Assembly: GCA_040902515.1 (NCBI GenBank) | Contig: JBBDXB010000006.1 | Coordinates: 194,219 to 258,218, forward strand | DNA length: 64,000 nucleotides | Reading direction: 5' to 3' | From: Patescibacteria group bacterium | GTDB lineage: Bacteria; Patescibacteriota; SICC01 | Shown: piece after piece, positions 22,451 to 30,929 of the stretch | Layout: every line of letters begins with the position of its first letter | How positions within the stretch are numbered: the stretch's first letter is position 1 | Notes under the pieces: generated by a model | Told to the model about the DNA's origin: nothing | Seen by the model: the letters and a program-made list of their open reading frames with translations, nothing else | Database searches by the model: none | Program-made: the position numbers and the translations under genes

Positions 22451-22486
22451 CACCGGAACACACCGGAACCGCTCGAAAAGAATAAA

Positions 22487-22528
22487 GGCCCGGAAGGTAT
22501 GGCTGCATGTGCAGACACCTTCCGGGCC
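22487..22528. terminator. bidirectional GC-rich hairpin between tRNA-Val (+) and the desaturase gene (-)
   Basis: ggcccggaaggt ...loop... accttccgggcc, with the inner palindrome ctgcatgtgcag in the loop. Confidence 0.55.
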
Positions 22529-26160: not shown

Positions 26161-27156
26161 TCAATCCGCTTGGGGGCGCGGGGACGGCGAGGACTTCACG
26201 AAGTCGCTGACCAGGAACTGCACGCCGCGCCGGAATTGTCCTTCTTCGCCGAGCGTACCCCGATCTTCGCCGTTCACGACCATTCGGGTACTGCCGCCAT
26301 TCGAGGTGGTCACGAGCACCCGCTCGCGCGCGGTGAACGTCTGGGTGGTATTGGGCGTCAGCAACCCGCTGAACGTGTTCTTACCGTCGACCTGGAGCTC
26401 CACGAACGCACTGTTCGGGCCGACCCGGAGGATGAACAGCGCCCCGGCGACCTCCGGAGACGAAGTGGGGTTCGGTCCGGGGGACGCCGCCGCGACCACC
26501 ACGGACCGTACTTCCACCCGCTCGCGGCCGTTCGGATCGCGGGCGACGATCCGGAGCGAGTTGGTGCCGGTCGGAAGCGTCACGATCTCGTTAAAGGAGC
26601 CGTCGGTGTCGGTGGGGATCGGCTGGTCGTTGATGAAGACCTGCGCGTCCGGCTCGGTCTGGCCGCGGACTTCCACGCGTTCGTCGTCGACCCGGGCGTC
26701 GACGGCCGGCGCAGCCACCTCCAGGTTCGGCGGCGACGCGAATCCCGTGATCTGCGAGATCAGGTAGCCGACCACGGAGAACAATAGCACCGCGGCAGCG
26801 GCATACCCCAAGGTGCGCGGCGTGATCGTGACCCGCGGCTGCTCGACCGACCGCTTCGGCAACGACAATGCCGGCGGCTGCCGCCCCGAGATACCCCGCT
26901 CCCGTTTGTACTGCGTCAGGACCTCGTCCTCGGGGAATCCCAGGAACTTGGCGTAGTTCTCAAGGAAGCCACGGACATAGACCTCCGCCGGCAGCTCCTC
27001 GTACCTGCCGTTTTCCAGCGCCTTCAGGTACTTCTGCGGGATTTTCGTCTCGCGCGCGATCTGCTCGAACGTCAGCCGGCTCGTCCGCCGGACGGCCTTG
27101 ATCTGCTCCGAGAGCGACTGGTCGCTTTTGAGTTCCCGTTTCTTGAATTGCGGCAT
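26161..27156 (-). CDS. rodZ: RodZ-like cytoskeleton protein (XRE HTH - TM - DUF4115)
   Basis: N-terminal HTH (LSEQIKAVRRTSRLTFEQIARETKIPQKYLKALENG), single TM, Pro-rich linker, C-terminal DUF4115-like domain. Confidence 0.8.
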   Translation of the reverse strand: MPQFKKRELKSDQSLSEQIKAVRRTSRLTFEQIARETKIPQKYLKALENGRYEELPAEVYVRGFLENYAKFLGFPEDEVLTQYKRERGISGRQPPALSLPKRSVEQPRVTITPRTLGYAAAAVLLFSVVGYLISQITGFASPPNLEVAAPAVDARVDDERVEVRGQTEPDAQVFINDQPIPTDTDGSFNEIVTLPTGTNSLRIVARDPNGRERVEVRSVVVAAASPGPNPTSSPEVAGALFILRVGPNSAFVELQVDGKNTFSGLLTPNTTQTFTARERVLVTTSNGGSTRMVVNGEDRGTLGEEGQFRRGVQFLVSDFVKSSPSPRPQAD

Positions 27157-27221
27157 ACATCACTAGGATATCGCATTCCACAGTGGCGACCGCTAGGCCG
27201 CTTGGTTCGCGTCGTGGTACT

Positions 27222-27286
27222 TCACGAAAAAGGAAAGGCCCGGCGAACGTTGGCTGTGAAATGAATCACGGTAACGTCCGCCGGGC
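27222..27286 (-). terminator. intrinsic terminator after P1
   Basis: Minus-strand GCCCGGCGGACGUU...AACGUUCGCCGGGC followed by CUUUCCUUUUUCG; near-identical in architecture to the terminator after P3. Confidence 0.6.
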
Positions 27287-27295
27287 ACATGGTGG

Positions 27296-27705
27296 TCAGG
27301 GATTTCGGTATACAAGAACCGAGAAAGGGGCCTCGGGTGGGGTCCGCTCATCGACGAGCTCCGACACAACGAAGAGCAGGATGAGGCCCCCGATGCAGGT
27401 GCCGACGAGTCCCATCAACTTCAGGACCCAGGGATCCGTGAGAATCTGGCCGACCCAAACGACCCGATGATCAAGTATGAACTCCCCGATGGCCATGAAG
27501 GTTGTCGCGATGCCCACGACAGCCGCCACCGCCACCATGCCGACGATGAACGGAGCAACGACGTTCGTCACCACGTTCACCATCCAGGCGAAGACGTTCC
27601 AGATCGAGTTTCGGATCGACCTCTTGCCAAACAACTTGTACGCCCCCACGGCGACCGCATAGGCGTACACGCCGAGAAGGGCGGACCCGGCTCAGGGCTC
27701 AGCAT
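27296..27705 (-). pseudogene. P1: frameshifted, or error-containing, paralog of a small membrane-protein family (WDTFAWMVN core)
   Basis: The conserved leader plus ATG at 27703-27705 opens a 42-aa frame (MLSPEPGPPFSACT...); the homologous membrane domain (ALLGVYAYAVAVGAYKLFGKRSIRNSIWNVFAWMVNVVTNVVAPFIVGM...) is in another frame (ORF 27296..27670, GTG). The frame switch falls in the GC homopolymer stretch near 27675-27690. Confidence 0.5.
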
Positions 27706-28145
27706 AACTTCCTTTCTGTCGAAGGTCCCTGGCGTTTCTCGTTCGAGTACTTCAGGACTGAGAAGTTCCAGACCTCCCAACCATCGAGCCAGTAAGCGAC
27801 CTCAGAACAAAGGCTAAGGACGCTGAAGAAGAGGCCGAAACCCGCAAAGACAGCCAAGTAACCCCAGGGGTCGGCGTAAAATTCACCCAATGTGGTGAAC
27901 TCCTGGTGAATCGCGAGATCTACGACGCTCATCAGGCCCAGTGCTCCGAAAACCCCGATCATGAGAACCCAGAAGGTTATATAGAGCGTCGGCACAATGA
28001 CGTTCGCCGCCGCGTTAACCATCCAAGCGAAGGTGTCCCAGGCCGCCTCCCGAAATTCTTTGCTGAAAAGCAGCAGTCCTGCGAGAATCGCGAGAATGAA
28101 CAGCACGGGACCGGTCGGCCACTGCACGACGTCCAGTACATCCAT
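27699..28145 (-). CDS. P2: small membrane protein, paralog of P1 and P3
   Basis: Start trimmed to MDVLDVVQWPTGPVLFILAILAGLLLFSKEFREAAWDTFAWMVNAAANVIVPTLYITFWVLMIGV...; conserved leader ...ACCUUCGACAGAAAGGAAGUC-AUG; its reading frame runs through the P1 leader, so the stop overlaps the P1 ATG. Confidence 0.6.
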   Translation of the reverse strand: MDVLDVVQWPTGPVLFILAILAGLLLFSKEFREAAWDTFAWMVNAAANVIVPTLYITFWVLMIGVFGALGLMSVVDLAIHQEFTTLGEFYADPWGYLAVFAGFGLFFSVLSLCSEVAYWLDGWEVWNFSVLKYSNEKRQGPSTERKLC

Positions 28146-28261
28146 GACTTCCTTTCTGTCGAAGGTGCGATCGCTAACGAGCAAACACCAAGCCTGGAAT
28201 CGCTAGCCCACAATCGTACCCTTGATTGTACTCGTGCGGTACCGGGCTGAGGAAAACGCCT

Positions 28262-28321
28262 GAAGAAAAAACGCCCGGCGAATGTCGGCTGTGTGATGAG
28301 CACAGTGATATTCGCCGGGCG
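28262..28321 (-). terminator. intrinsic terminator after P3
   Basis: Minus-strand CGCCCGGCGAAU...AUUCGCCGGGCG followed by UUUUUUCUUC. Confidence 0.65.
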
Positions 28322-28358
28322 CAGTTACCGCTGAACCCGCAAGGGTTTCCCTTGGCGC

Positions 28359-28799
28359 TCAGTCGGGTTGAGAACCGAAAGCATGAGACAACGCCAGGGC
28401 GAACAGTGCGGCAGTGGCTATCAGGAGCGTTCCCAGGAGCCAATTCGCGAGCCAACCGCCGGTGTCCCAGTCGCTACCGGCGAGACTTTGCCCCAGCAGG
28501 TACCCCATTCCCAGGGCTACGGCCGAGCAGACGAGGGCGACGGACAGTCGCCACGAAAACCTCCGTCGCGCCGTGCGCTGCTGGTGTACCCTGAGCTCAT
28601 TGGCACTCAGGGTGTGGCCGCAGTCGATGCACCAGGGCTGCTCCTCGCGACCGGCATAACCATCGATAGTGCGGACGTCCCCACCGCCACGCTCGAGGCG
28701 CCGTGCTACGTCCTTGCTAATCGTGGTGGTCGTGGGATGAGCGCACGGTTGTGCGCCTCTGGCCCGGGTCTCCCGGAGAACCGCCCGATCGATACCCAT
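28359..28799 (-). CDS. P3: membrane protein with an N-terminal Cys/His cluster (zinc-ribbon-like), paralogous core to P1 and P2
   Basis: 146 aa; PCAH...WCIDCGH cluster, then TM helices containing SDWDTGGWLANWLLGTLLIATAA (compare P2 AWDTFAWMVNAAANVIVPTLYI); same leader GACAGAAAGGAAC...AUG. Confidence 0.55.
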   Translation of the reverse strand: MGIDRAVLRETRARGAQPCAHPTTTTISKDVARRLERGGGDVRTIDGYAGREEQPWCIDCGHTLSANELRVHQQRTARRRFSWRLSVALVCSAVALGMGYLLGQSLAGSDWDTGGWLANWLLGTLLIATAALFALALSHAFGSQPD

Positions 28800-28853
28800 T
28801 CAGTGTTCCTTTCTGTCGAAGGTGCGTTCGCTAGTCGAGACTAACAGGTCATT

Positions 28854-30929
28854 TTATTCCGACTCATCGGTATCCACCAGCACCTGGCGCGGCTTGGCGC
28901 CCTCGCCGGGGCCGATCACGCCGTTCTCCTCGAGCGCGTCGATCAGCCGGGCGGCCCGGCCGTAGCCGATCCGGAGTCGCCGCTGCAGGTATGACGTCGA
29001 GGCCTTCTTCGCCCGGACCACCTCCGCCTTGGCCTCCTCGTACATCGGATCGTCGGAACCCTCGCCGTCCCCGCCGCTCTCGGCTCCGGCCGCCGGACGC
29101 TCCGTCACCGATTCCTCGTATACCGGCTTGCCCTTGCCCTTCAGGAAGTCGGTCAGCTGGTTCGCCTCGCGGGTCTCGACGTACGCCCCCTGTACCCGGA
29201 CCGGCTGCGGCGTGCTCGCCGTCATCATCAACGAGTCGCCTTTGCCAAGCAGCTTATCCGCGCCACCGGAATCCAGAATCACCCGCGAGTCCACCAGCGA
29301 GCTCACCGCGAACGCGATCCGGCTCGGGAAATTCGCCTTGATCACGCCGGTGATCACGTTCGTGCTCGGGCGCTGCGTCGCGATGATCAGGTGGATTCCG
29401 GTCGCCCGCGCCAGCTGCGCGATTCGCGTGACGGCGCCCTCCACCGCCTTGCCCGAGACCTGCATCAGGTCCGCCAGCTCGTCGATCACGATCACCAGGT
29501 ACGGCATCTCCTCCTTCTTGTGCGCCTTGTTGTATTCGATGATGTTCCGCGCGCCAGCCTCCTGGAACACCTGGTAACGGCGTTCCATCTCGGACACCAC
29601 CCACTTCAGCGCGTTGACCACCTTCGGCGGGTCGACGATCACCGGGGCAAGCAGGTGCGGGATGTCGTTGTAGTTGGTAAGTTCCACGCGTTTCGGGTCG
29701 ACCAGCAACAAGCGCAGGTGCTTCGGTGAGTGCGTGAAGAGCAGGCTCATCAGGATCGCGTTGATCGCCACGGACTTCCCCGAACCGGTCTGTCCGGCGA
29801 TCAGGAGGTGTGGCATCGCCGAGAGGTCCGTTACCACCGGCTGGCCGGACACGTCGAGGCCGAGCGCCAGCGGCAGCGCGCCGCCCTTCTTGAACTGATT
29901 CGTCTCGAAGAGCTGGCGCAGCCGTACCGTCGCGGCCTTCCGGTTCGGCACCTCCACGCCGACCGACGACTTGCCGGGAATCGGTGCCTGGATCCGGATC
30001 GGATGGGCCGCCAGGGCCAGGGCCAGGTCGTTGGTGCGCTGCGTGATCTCGGTGACCTTCACGCCGGGTGCCGGCCGGAGCTCGAACTGCGTGACGGTCG
30101 GACCGATCCGGGCACCCTCGACCTTCGCTTCGATGTTGAAGTTCGCGAGCGTTCGCTCGACGATCGTCGCCATGTGCCGGGTATCGCCGGCATCCGCCTC
30201 CGAGGTGTCGTCCGAGAGCAGCGAGAGCGGGGGCGGTTCCCAGGCCGCGTCCACGACCCGCGGCGTGAAATCCGCCGCCGGCGCGGGATCCCCGGCCGAG
30301 CGCGGTTTCGGCGCCGGAGGCGCCGCCGAAGAGCGGACCGACTCACGGCGCGGGAGAACGGCGGGTTCTGAGCGCTGGGGAATCACCGAATCGTCGGCGC
30401 GCTTACGGTTGGTCATCACGAGCAGCCCTACCGCGAACAGCGCCGCGAAGACGATCAGCGTCACCAGACCGCCGACCGCGTAGGCCGCGGTCTCGGTCAA
30501 CGCGTAGCCGAGAAGACCGCCGAACTCGCCGCGCAGCGCGACTTCGAGCTCGTCCACTTTCACGAAGAGATGCAGCAATGCGGCCAGCGCGACGAGCGAT
30601 ATCACGAATCCGACGACCGTATGCCGCGGGAGCGACTCATGCCGGTACAGCCGGTAACCGGCGTACGCCGCGGCCGGCGGCAGCAGCCAGGCCGAGACGC
30701 CGATCGCCTGCGTGCCCCAAAGCGCCAACGCGGAGCCGGCGGGACCACCGGTCCCTATCAAGGCGAACGCGAGTACCGCCGCGAAAGCCAGCAGCAGCAC
30801 GCCGGTCACCCGGCGGGCCGTTTCCGGCTCCAGGAGCGGCTGCCTCGGTTCCGGCTTCGTGCGGCGGGATCGCGAGCGGGCCGGCTTCCTGCTTCGTGTA
30901 CGTTTTGCGGTTCTCCGTGCCATGGGCAT
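28854..30929 (-). CDS. ftsK: DNA translocase FtsK/SpoIIIE
   Basis: 691 aa; N-terminal TM helices, Pro-rich linker, motor domain with Walker A GQTGSGKSV, C-terminal gamma domain. Confidence 0.9.
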   Translation of the reverse strand: MPMARRTAKRTRSRKPARSRSRRTKPEPRQPLLEPETARRVTGVLLLAFAAVLAFALIGTGGPAGSALALWGTQAIGVSAWLLPPAAAYAGYRLYRHESLPRHTVVGFVISLVALAALLHLFVKVDELEVALRGEFGGLLGYALTETAAYAVGGLVTLIVFAALFAVGLLVMTNRKRADDSVIPQRSEPAVLPRRESVRSSAAPPAPKPRSAGDPAPAADFTPRVVDAAWEPPPLSLLSDDTSEADAGDTRHMATIVERTLANFNIEAKVEGARIGPTVTQFELRPAPGVKVTEITQRTNDLALALAAHPIRIQAPIPGKSSVGVEVPNRKAATVRLRQLFETNQFKKGGALPLALGLDVSGQPVVTDLSAMPHLLIAGQTGSGKSVAINAILMSLLFTHSPKHLRLLLVDPKRVELTNYNDIPHLLAPVIVDPPKVVNALKWVVSEMERRYQVFQEAGARNIIEYNKAHKKEEMPYLVIVIDELADLMQVSGKAVEGAVTRIAQLARATGIHLIIATQRPSTNVITGVIKANFPSRIAFAVSSLVDSRVILDSGGADKLLGKGDSLMMTASTPQPVRVQGAYVETREANQLTDFLKGKGKPVYEESVTERPAAGAESGGDGEGSDDPMYEEAKAEVVRAKKASTSYLQRRLRIGYGRAARLIDALEENGVIGPGEGAKPRQVLVDTDESE

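Follow-up and report, generated by a model that had tools for sequence, protein, structure and literature searches.

What kind of locus lies between ftsK and rodZ in a Patescibacteria group bacterium, and how did its small genes come to stand behind one and the same short leader? These questions are raised by a 64,000-nucleotide (nt) stretch of contig JBBDXB010000006.1 (assembly GCA_040902515.1, positions 194,219 to 258,218; hereafter the window), in which the slot between the two genes holds the features P3, P2 and P1, all on the minus strand. A sequence-only reading had described them as a tandem array of three paralogous membrane-protein genes, recently duplicated or converted as cassettes together with their leaders and terminators. 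Our comparisons point to a different history: the locus is probably, though well short of certainly, a lineage-restricted, fast-evolving islet of accessory membrane proteins in a conserved slot of a small Patescibacteria clade.

The slot is bounded by ftsK (28854-30929) and by a RodZ-like helix-turn-helix gene (26161-27156; HTH_25/RodZ_C-like), behind which recA and then recX are located. The genes of the neighbourhood encode FtsH, MurJ, FtsK, the RodZ-like protein, RecA and RecX, and the order is murJ-ftsK-slot-rodZ-recA-recX. A 1751-nt region of the locus is 100% identical in a GenBank metagenome-assembled genome (MAG) and in three independent Logan assemblies from different sequencing runs; since four assemblies agree, the array is neither an assembly artefact nor a collapsed repeat. 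P2 carries the locus tag WD603_01155 in the Patescibacteria MAG GCA_040903945.1. Four loci from two sub-lineages were compared, namely the window and its sister genome GCA_964476895.1 (L005) in one, and the contigs L128 and L129 of distant relatives in the other. The islet is 1.7-2.7 kb in size. P3 (28359..28799) and P2 (27699..28145) are intact open reading frames (ORFs) of 146 and 148 amino acids (aa), exactly where the sequence-only reading had placed them, and P2 is a membrane protein with about three predicted transmembrane helices. The gene drawn as P1 (27296..27705) is 410 nt long, which is not a multiple of three, and was drawn across a frameshift.

Only two of the three features proved to be related. 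P1 and P2 align over their full length with 27-30% identity (BLASTP E 4e-8), and have in common the blocks W-x-x-F-A-W-[MV]-V-N...N-[VL]-x-x-P and, at the C-terminus, F-S-V-L-x-Y-x-N. They are true paralogues that make up a new family of integral membrane proteins. P3 has in common with them just a motif of about 10 residues, W-D/N-x-x-x-W-[LM]-[AV]-N. BLASTP comparisons of P3 with P1 and P2 gave E-values of 0.001-0.03, alignment with their profiles (hhalign) gave a probability of 2.8% (E 0.016) over 33 columns only, and the hidden Markov model (HMM) of the P1/P2 family scored P3 at E 7.1. In P1 and P2 the motif follows the basic loop behind the first transmembrane helix; in P3 it reads WDTGGWLANW and is located in the short acidic loop connecting both of its helices, so that it is predicted to face the opposite side of the membrane. 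Homology of P3 to P1 and P2 could not be demonstrated, and it seems to be an unrelated neighbour rather than a third paralogue.

Hydropathy and charge divide P3 into a basic N-terminal domain of about 83 aa (15 K+R) and a two-helix transmembrane hairpin, which would anchor the Cys/His domain on the cytoplasmic side. The Cys/His cluster noted from the letters is present with the pattern C19/H21...C57-x2-C60-x-H62, all five residues are invariant in the sister ortholog (69% identity, no gaps), and the domain is probably zinc-binding. The arrangement recalls ZAS-type anti-sigma factors, which are membrane-anchored, zinc-binding proteins with the signature H-x3-C-x2-C. Like them, P3 has transmembrane segments that come after a Cys/His cluster in a cytoplasmic N-terminal part; unlike them, it has C-x-H...C-x2-C-x-H in place of H-x3-C-x2-C, no Pfam zf-HC2 hit and no adjacent sigma-factor gene. 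Pfam zf-LYAR matched P3 at E 0.08, under its cutoff. Searches of the PDB found no significant match to P3, either by sequence or with its AlphaFold2 model in Foldseek (best E-value 2.2); the model, built from two sequences, has a predicted local distance difference test score (pLDDT) of 62 overall and 42-60 in the N-terminal domain, too low to interpret. The GenBank annotation of GCA_040903945.1 has no gene call at P3 (L001 5347-5787), and Logan assemblies are the sole record of the exact protein; in GCA_964476895.1 its ortholog does have a gene call. P3 thus looks like a gene missed by the GenBank annotation.

The distribution of these proteins is very narrow. A word-indexed search of 5.8 billion protein clusters found P1, P2 and P3 only in the window's genome and the sister genome. 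When the P1/P2 profile was run with HMMER exhaustively against 1.84 billion cluster representatives, with the sister-genome copies of P1 and P2 folded into the window's 50% clusters, the search returned the window's P1 and P2 and one further protein, P0007 (144 aa, E 5e-5). Its gene is located on contig L128, directly upstream of rodZ in the same slot. The RodZ proteins of L128 and the window are 59% identical, and the L128 member is about 25-35% identical to P1/P2 (29-35% to P2). P1 and P2 are therefore about as distant from each other as P2 is from the L128 member, which dates the duplication to about the age of the lineage split. A metagenome scan with a RodZ alignment yielded short contigs only, one of which (L129) was informative. 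Searches of Pfam, PADLOC, PHROGs, Rfam, PDB and IMG/VR with the islet sequences returned no significant match, and the shared core matches no characterised family, in agreement with the earlier description of an accessory membrane-protein family without a known function. The best weak Pfam hit was DUF2062, an uncharacterised bacterial membrane protein of similar size with several transmembrane helices. The hit involves the C-terminal half of the model, is seen for three of five P1/P2-family members at E < 10, and reaches at best E 0.024 and 15 bits against a gathering score of 27.4; it is compatible with a compositional likeness of transmembrane helices. A literature search on the assemblies and on comparable loci turned up nothing relevant.

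The islet evolves much faster than the genes around it. Between the window and the sister genome, its nucleotide identity is 80-86% and its proteins are 69-81% identical, against 94-95% nucleotide identity in the flanks, where protein identity is 97-98% for FtsK and RodZ and the ratio of nonsynonymous to synonymous substitution rates (dN/dS) is 0.06-0.07. Relative to the flanks, dN in the islet is 8-19 times higher and dS about 2 times higher, and the islet genes diverge about 3 times faster. Selection nevertheless acts on all three frames: dN/dS is 0.25 for P2 (p=9e-7), 0.40 for the P1 core (p = 0.003) and 0.51 for the sense frame of P3 (p=0.007; 80% nucleotide identity), in each case the lowest of the six frames. 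These values are significantly below neutrality, and P1, P2 and P3 are or recently were functional genes. The P2 and P3 alignments contain no indels.

Long ORFs also run antisense to the islet genes on the plus strand (27906-28250, 28368-28844 and 27467-27817; 114-158 aa) and are open in the sister genome too. They were rejected as real genes; dN/dS is about 0.95 for such ORFs, including the one over P3 (28368-28844; 0.95, neutral). They are by-products of high GC content, with a neutral substitution pattern.

The content of the slot turns over between close relatives. The sister genome carries two additional genes: P4 (L005 4805-5062), located directly after ftsK and preceded by the leader, whose product is a membrane protein of 85 aa containing three hydrophobic segments, and a gene for a 150-aa soluble protein (L005 6762-7214), located after the P1 terminator and preceded by neither leader nor Shine-Dalgarno sequence. 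Neither protein matches a family. Relative to the sister genome the window has suffered three losses, namely P4, the 150-aa gene and the reading frame of P1. In a three-way alignment the window equals the sister's ftsK-to-P4 upstream sequence left of the leader, and the sister's P3 sequence from the leader on. This places the junction of the P4 indel inside the leader repeat, the outcome expected if two direct copies of the leader recombined homologously.

A similar variability was observed in the other sub-lineage. On L128, murJ comes first, then a gene for 180 aa and ftsK, and five small genes stand between ftsK and rodZ. The RodZ proteins of L128 and L129 are 92% identical, yet the genes before rodZ differ: 138-aa and 144-aa membrane genes on L128, and 103-aa and 101-aa soluble genes on L129. 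In both sub-lineages, then, the interval between ftsK and rodZ is a small slot of hypervariable content. Its content differs from that of the window in L005, L128 and L129 alike, and copy number does vary among relatives, a check that the sequence-only reading had proposed.

The third loss, that of the P1 frame, was seen as follows. The leader-linked ATG of P1 (27703-27705) reads a 42-codon ORF that is out of frame with the conserved core. The core lies in a frame that is open over 27296-27691 and closed upstream by a TGA (27692-27694), and its first start is a GTG at 27670 without a Shine-Dalgarno sequence. The P1 gene of the sister genome is intact (411 nt, 136 aa, L005 6235-6645) and starts at the equivalent ATG. 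Against it, the window has a 1-nt gap near 27686-27687, with the exact place ambiguous within 27671-27697. The gap is most simply read as a fixed deletion of 1 nt in the window, which leaves P1 here as a pseudogene or as an N-terminally truncated, poorly initiated allele. Programmed -1 frameshifting was rejected, since the ATG frame lacks a slippery heptamer of the form X-XXY-YYZ, homopolymer runs are absent there, and the sister's gene, with one nt more, is intact.

P2 and P1 are tightly joined. As the sequence-only reading had noted, no terminator follows P2, whose frame continues across the P1 leader region (27706..27744, minus strand, inside the P2 3' end, with its box at 27709-27726) into a TGA at 27701-27699, so that its final 13 codons (EKRQGPSTERKLC) come from the P1 leader and its end overlaps the P1 start by 7 nt (ATGCTGA). 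From this overlap we infer that P2 and P1 may be translationally coupled. In the sister genome ATGCTGA precedes the intact 136-aa P1, an overlapping pair in the full sense; in the window, by contrast, that ATG and the P1 core lie in different frames.

Both transcription units suggested by this layout end in strong terminators. T1, after P3 (28265..28322; hairpin 28271-28322), and T2, after P1 (27228..27286; hairpin 27238-27286), lie on the minus strand and form two-tier hairpins followed by a UUUUUU tract and a CUUUCCUUUU tail, respectively. Their folding energies are -33.4 kcal/mol (z -6.5 against shuffled sequences) for T1 and -32.0 kcal/mol (z -6.1) for T2. Like intrinsic (Rho-independent) terminators, they consist of a stable GC-rich stem-loop with a U-rich tract directly after a stop codon; unlike the usual form, they have a long stem built in two tiers, which includes an inner mini-hairpin and, as a conserved 3' bulge, CAGCC-R-AC. 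A simple terminator scanner missed both, their loops being longer than 8 nt. Identity with the sister genome is 94.8% for T1 and 94.1% for T2, much higher than in the coding regions. Each of the two is the closest relative of the other, and they had been called near-identical; this applies to their 3' arms (19/21 matches), while over the whole length they match at about 75%. A third two-tier terminator, CCCGGAAGGTGTCTGCACATGCAGCCATACCTTCCGGGCCTTT (22484-22526, minus strand; -35.5 kcal/mol, z -7.9), stands after a fatty-acid desaturase gene, and has the GCCCGG...CAGCC..CCGGGCNTTT design in common with T1 and T2 and with those on contigs L128 and L129. All four terminators seen on these two contigs follow the scheme of GCCCGG..., inner mini-hairpin, CAGCC-R-AC and ...CCGGGC-N-TTT. 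The two-tier terminator is the clade's habitual form and is not specific to a cassette.

Promoter-like elements were found at the other ends of these units. Upstream of P3 (region 28800..28856, minus strand), a -10-like TAAAAT (28851-28856) overlaps the ftsK stop codon and is followed by a small hairpin, GTTAGTCTCGACTAGC (28830-28845); the layout of this region recurs before the sister genome's P4. Upstream of P2, a promoter-like region with a 5' untranslated region (28146..28236, minus strand) contains TACAAT (28225-28230) and after it a GCTAGCGA...TCGTTAGC hairpin. It is about 91% identical to the sister genome over 101 nt, and its TACAATCAAG is also kept before the 138-aa gene of L128. P3 alone would thus form one unit, from the -10-like box over the ftsK stop to T1, and P2 and P1 a bicistron from the conserved TACAAT region to T2, with P1 coupled translationally to P2. 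The same succession of a -10-like hexamer and GTTAGY/RCTARC hairpin arms occurs at five slot promoters in three genomes. The GTTAGY...RCTARC inverted-repeat arms stand a few nt downstream of the hexamers with variable spacing (window 28830-28845 and 28167-28215, minus strand; L005 4763-4779; L128 5882-5925, 6752-6800 and 7500-7520), and could form 5'-terminal mRNA hairpins. In the window YGTTAGY is otherwise under-represented, with 4 observed and 12 expected.

The synteny of the locus raises the possibility that the islet proteins are accessory subunits or regulators of the division and elongation machinery that work with FtsK and RodZ. Small fast-evolving membrane proteins are common among divisome accessories, orientation and synteny with murJ, ftsK and rodZ are kept in three genomes, and a P1/P2-family gene stands directly upstream of rodZ in the window, L005 and L128. 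However, strong terminators separate the units from rodZ, no family member precedes rodZ on L129 in spite of its RodZ being 92% identical to that of L128, and in the window P1 is frameshifted and P4 deleted. With dN/dS 4-8 times that of ftsK and rodZ, these dispensable, quickly replaced genes fit a core machinery poorly, and we regard such a role as unlikely.

What the genes do have in common is the leader, which the sequence-only reading had reported as conserved. The 18-mer ACCTTCGACAGAAAGGAA has exactly three copies in the 64 kb, all on the minus strand and all exact (28806-28823, 28149-28166 and 27709-27726), against a chance expectation of 0.01; allowing up to three mismatches revealed no further copies within the window. 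The P2 and P3 copies extend to 28 nt with 96% identity, including TAGCGA(T/A)CGCACC, likewise as reported (P3, 28806-28833, with the ATG at 28799; P2, 28149-28176). The leader combines a ACCTTCGAC box with a Shine-Dalgarno sequence, GAAAGGAA, as in the P3 copy. GAAAGGAA is located 3-6 nt before each ATG, as befits a Shine-Dalgarno sequence, and the same core is found before recA. Neither the window nor the loci compared with it contain an rRNA gene. A comparison of 60 nt upstream of the slot genes and neighbouring genes showed that GAAAGGA(G/A) is the ordinary Shine-Dalgarno sequence of the clade (recA has CGACTGAAAGGAG), and that the ACCTTCGAC box is islet-specific, preceding each of the four membrane genes found in the window and L005. 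The leader of P4 in L005 is the variant ACCTTCGAAAGAAAGGAA, the two box variants of L005 differ at the two central positions only, and on L128 the box is still recognisable as GCACCTTCAAGCGAAAGGA, GTACCTATCGAAAGGAG and GTACCTTCGAAAA.

An operator common with rodZ, with the sequence TAGCGRNCGC, was considered and rejected: its three hits in the window are all at this locus, against 1.7 expected, and the rodZ-proximal copy is not conserved in L005. The rodZ-like gene itself has no Shine-Dalgarno sequence. A conserved TATCCT/TATTCT hexamer ends 8 nt before its ATG in 4/4 genomes (window 27157-27176, minus strand; L005 7231-7250; L128 8513-8532; L129 794-813), which suggests a leaderless mRNA.

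The P1 leader differs from that of the sister genome at 1/39 positions, though dS of P2, whose 3' end contains it, is 0.44. The identity of the 18-mer in paralogues with saturated coding sequence, and the single changed position, point to selection at the nucleotide level; and as the duplication is old, the perfect identity of the leaders is no by-product of recency. The identity is better explained by selection than by recency, with gene conversion of the short leader as a possible contribution. We take the leader to be an extended translation-initiation region, perhaps with a sequence-specific binding partner, and not a structured riboswitch-like element.

A structured cis-regulatory RNA, such as a riboswitch, a thermometer or an operator for a protein or small RNA, would sequester the Shine-Dalgarno sequence and control all islet genes. 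In its favour, the ACCTTCGAC box stands before the Shine-Dalgarno sequence and has a CCUU able to pair with AAGG, the L005 variants all fall in the would-be loop, the sequence before the P1 ATG is conserved beyond coding needs, and GTTAGY/RCTARC arms recur near the presumed 5' ends. The hairpins are weak, however, and the leaders fold no better than shuffled sequence (z 0.05, -0.59 and -0.53). Rfam contains no match to the leader or the window at the gathering score, and up to E 5 only three unrelated sub-threshold matches. We therefore give this explanation a small chance. A degenerate 17-mer of the leader had single chance matches in unrelated phyla only in the genome contig collection, and the exact leader had two single matches in IMG/VR, as chance predicts.

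How does the islet compare with known variable loci? Flexible genomic islets, or horizontal-transfer hotspots between core genes, are a general concept in bacterial pangenomics. The slot is like them in that core flanks of 95% nucleotide identity enclose accessory genes that are replaced fast among close relatives, mobility genes are absent and indel junctions lie in short repeats. It is unlike them in being very small, in holding only small orphan membrane or Cys/His proteins, in having the leader before most genes and in the persistence of one resident family over deep divergence. With integron arrays it has in common small tandem genes on one strand, a repeat at gene boundaries and the gain and loss of whole genes. 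Yet none of the neighbouring genes is an integrase; in contrast to attC, which is 3' and structured, the repeat here is an 18-28 nt ribosome-binding leader at the 5' side with no significant fold; and, unlike integron cassettes, each unit has its own expression signals and terminator. The slot might go further and be a dedicated cassette-exchange locus, in which the leader, and perhaps the stereotyped terminator, serve as portable adaptors that supply both expression signals and the short homology for swapping, deleting or capturing small-protein genes as wholes, with no need of a recombinase gene; we consider this decidedly unlikely. If true, it would allow continual diversification of envelope proteins for host attachment or phage exclusion in an episymbiont.

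The slots of the distant relatives hold further orphans (L128 5975-8435; L129 45-686). L128 and L129 have a 139-aa soluble family in common (39% identity), and the remaining orphans include a 78-aa membrane protein and a 200-aa soluble protein. The 138-aa four-helix membrane protein has an internal repeat with a GGW loop motif weakly like the P3 hairpin (E 0.002), and the 101-aa Cys/His soluble protein has an RLERGG segment weakly like the P3 N-terminal domain (E 0.015). At L128 8380-8435 and L129 640-686, the 3' ends of the unrelated genes for the 144-aa protein (d144; ...HEEKLPTFVPFA) and the 101-aa protein (e101; ...WEKLEPEIAPA) align in nucleotides, as does the terminator behind them, which hints that slot gene replacement can have its junction inside the 3' end of a resident gene.

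The recent duplication or gene conversion of a single gene-leader-terminator cassette, yielding three young paralogues, was the history first proposed from the letters. It would account for a leader repeated identically three times and for terminators that match at 19/21 in the 3' arm, and P1 and P2 are indeed paralogues. It fails on their age, since P1 and P2 are no more than 27-30% identical, L005 already has both, and the family member in the L128 slot is as similar to P2 as P1 is. It also fails on the units themselves: homology of P3 is not demonstrated, the terminator design occurs across the clade and stands behind an unrelated gene as well, and the Shine-Dalgarno part of the leader is common with recA. 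We consider this history improbable.

An origin as a remnant of a mobile element, prophage, anti-phage defence or toxin-immunity module at a hotspot appears similarly improbable. The variable content, the small, fast-evolving orphan membrane and Cys/His proteins and the base composition could speak for it. The array had been described as lower in GC than its flanks, and this is true of P2 (0.548) and P1 (0.595) but not of P3 (0.651), with ftsK at 0.678 and rodZ at 0.659; GC at third codon positions (GC3) is lower across all three genes, at 0.69-0.80 against 0.87 in the flanks. However, the neighbourhood contains no integrase, transposase or phage gene, the borders have no tRNA or attachment-site repeat, PADLOC returned no hits, the best PHROGs match was sub-threshold (E-value 0.11), and IMG/VR held no relatives of the islet proteins. 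The persistence of the slot and of one family over deep divergence argues for vertical inheritance with local turnover. That the genes are merely decaying, non-functional remnants, as the missing P4 and 150-aa gene, the frameshifted P1 and the dN/dS of P3, which shows no codon-position bias, might suggest, is very unlikely given the significant purifying selection on all three frames, each the best of six, the intact and indel-free P2 and P3, the strongly conserved leaders and terminators, and the retention of the family over deep divergence.

The reading that we prefer, a lineage-restricted accessory islet in a conserved slot, would work as follows. The leader, made of the clade's GAAAGGA Shine-Dalgarno sequence and the islet-specific ACCTTCGAC box, would be kept by selection for like initiation or regulation of the genes behind it. 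As a direct repeat, it would also be a place where homologous recombination can remove or insert entire genes. Strong terminators would insulate the islet genes from ftsK and rodZ. The islet would evolve by fast substitution together with recombination at short repeats, and the window's copy is eroding relative to that of the sister genome.

Several points weigh against this reading. Neither homology nor experiment yields a clue to what the proteins do, and structure prediction did not help, with a pLDDT of 55 for P2 (four sequences; too low to interpret) beside the 62 of P3. The shared regulation through the leader is conjectural, with leaders that fold no better than shuffled sequence, and a scan for sigma-70 promoters found no full consensus. 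No significant bias towards third positions is seen among the P3 substitutions. The four loci and two sub-lineages compared are a small basis for turnover rates and for the direction of indels, and the raised dS of the islet could come from weaker codon bias instead of recombination. Finally, the segment 27190-27215 (minus strand) between T2 and the rodZ promoter (ACCAAGCGGCCTAGC...) is loosely like the end of the sister genome's 150-aa gene (ACCAGGCGGCGTAAC...), and may be a remnant of that gene after deletion, but the evidence is weak.

The membrane location, the fast evolution, the presence/absence variation and the residual purifying selection lead us to a tentative guess, held at somewhat less than even, that the proteins are non-essential envelope components whose value shifts with host or phage pressure. 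The locus adds two orphan protein families, the membrane proteins P1/P2 and the Cys/His protein P3. It is also of use for annotation, in that P3 was missed by GenBank and P1 can now be flagged as frameshifted; none of this will surprise a specialist, as a variable islet is an ordinary kind of genomic feature in a Patescibacteria genome. Patescibacteria have small genomes with many unannotated small membrane proteins, whose relevance to the epibiotic lifestyle is an open question. The islet is a compact example of them, combining a conserved slot, turnover of content and several-fold faster divergence with purifying selection nonetheless and a common leader. Should its proteins turn out to be determinants of the surface or of host interaction, the slot would serve well as a marker for adaptation at the strain level.

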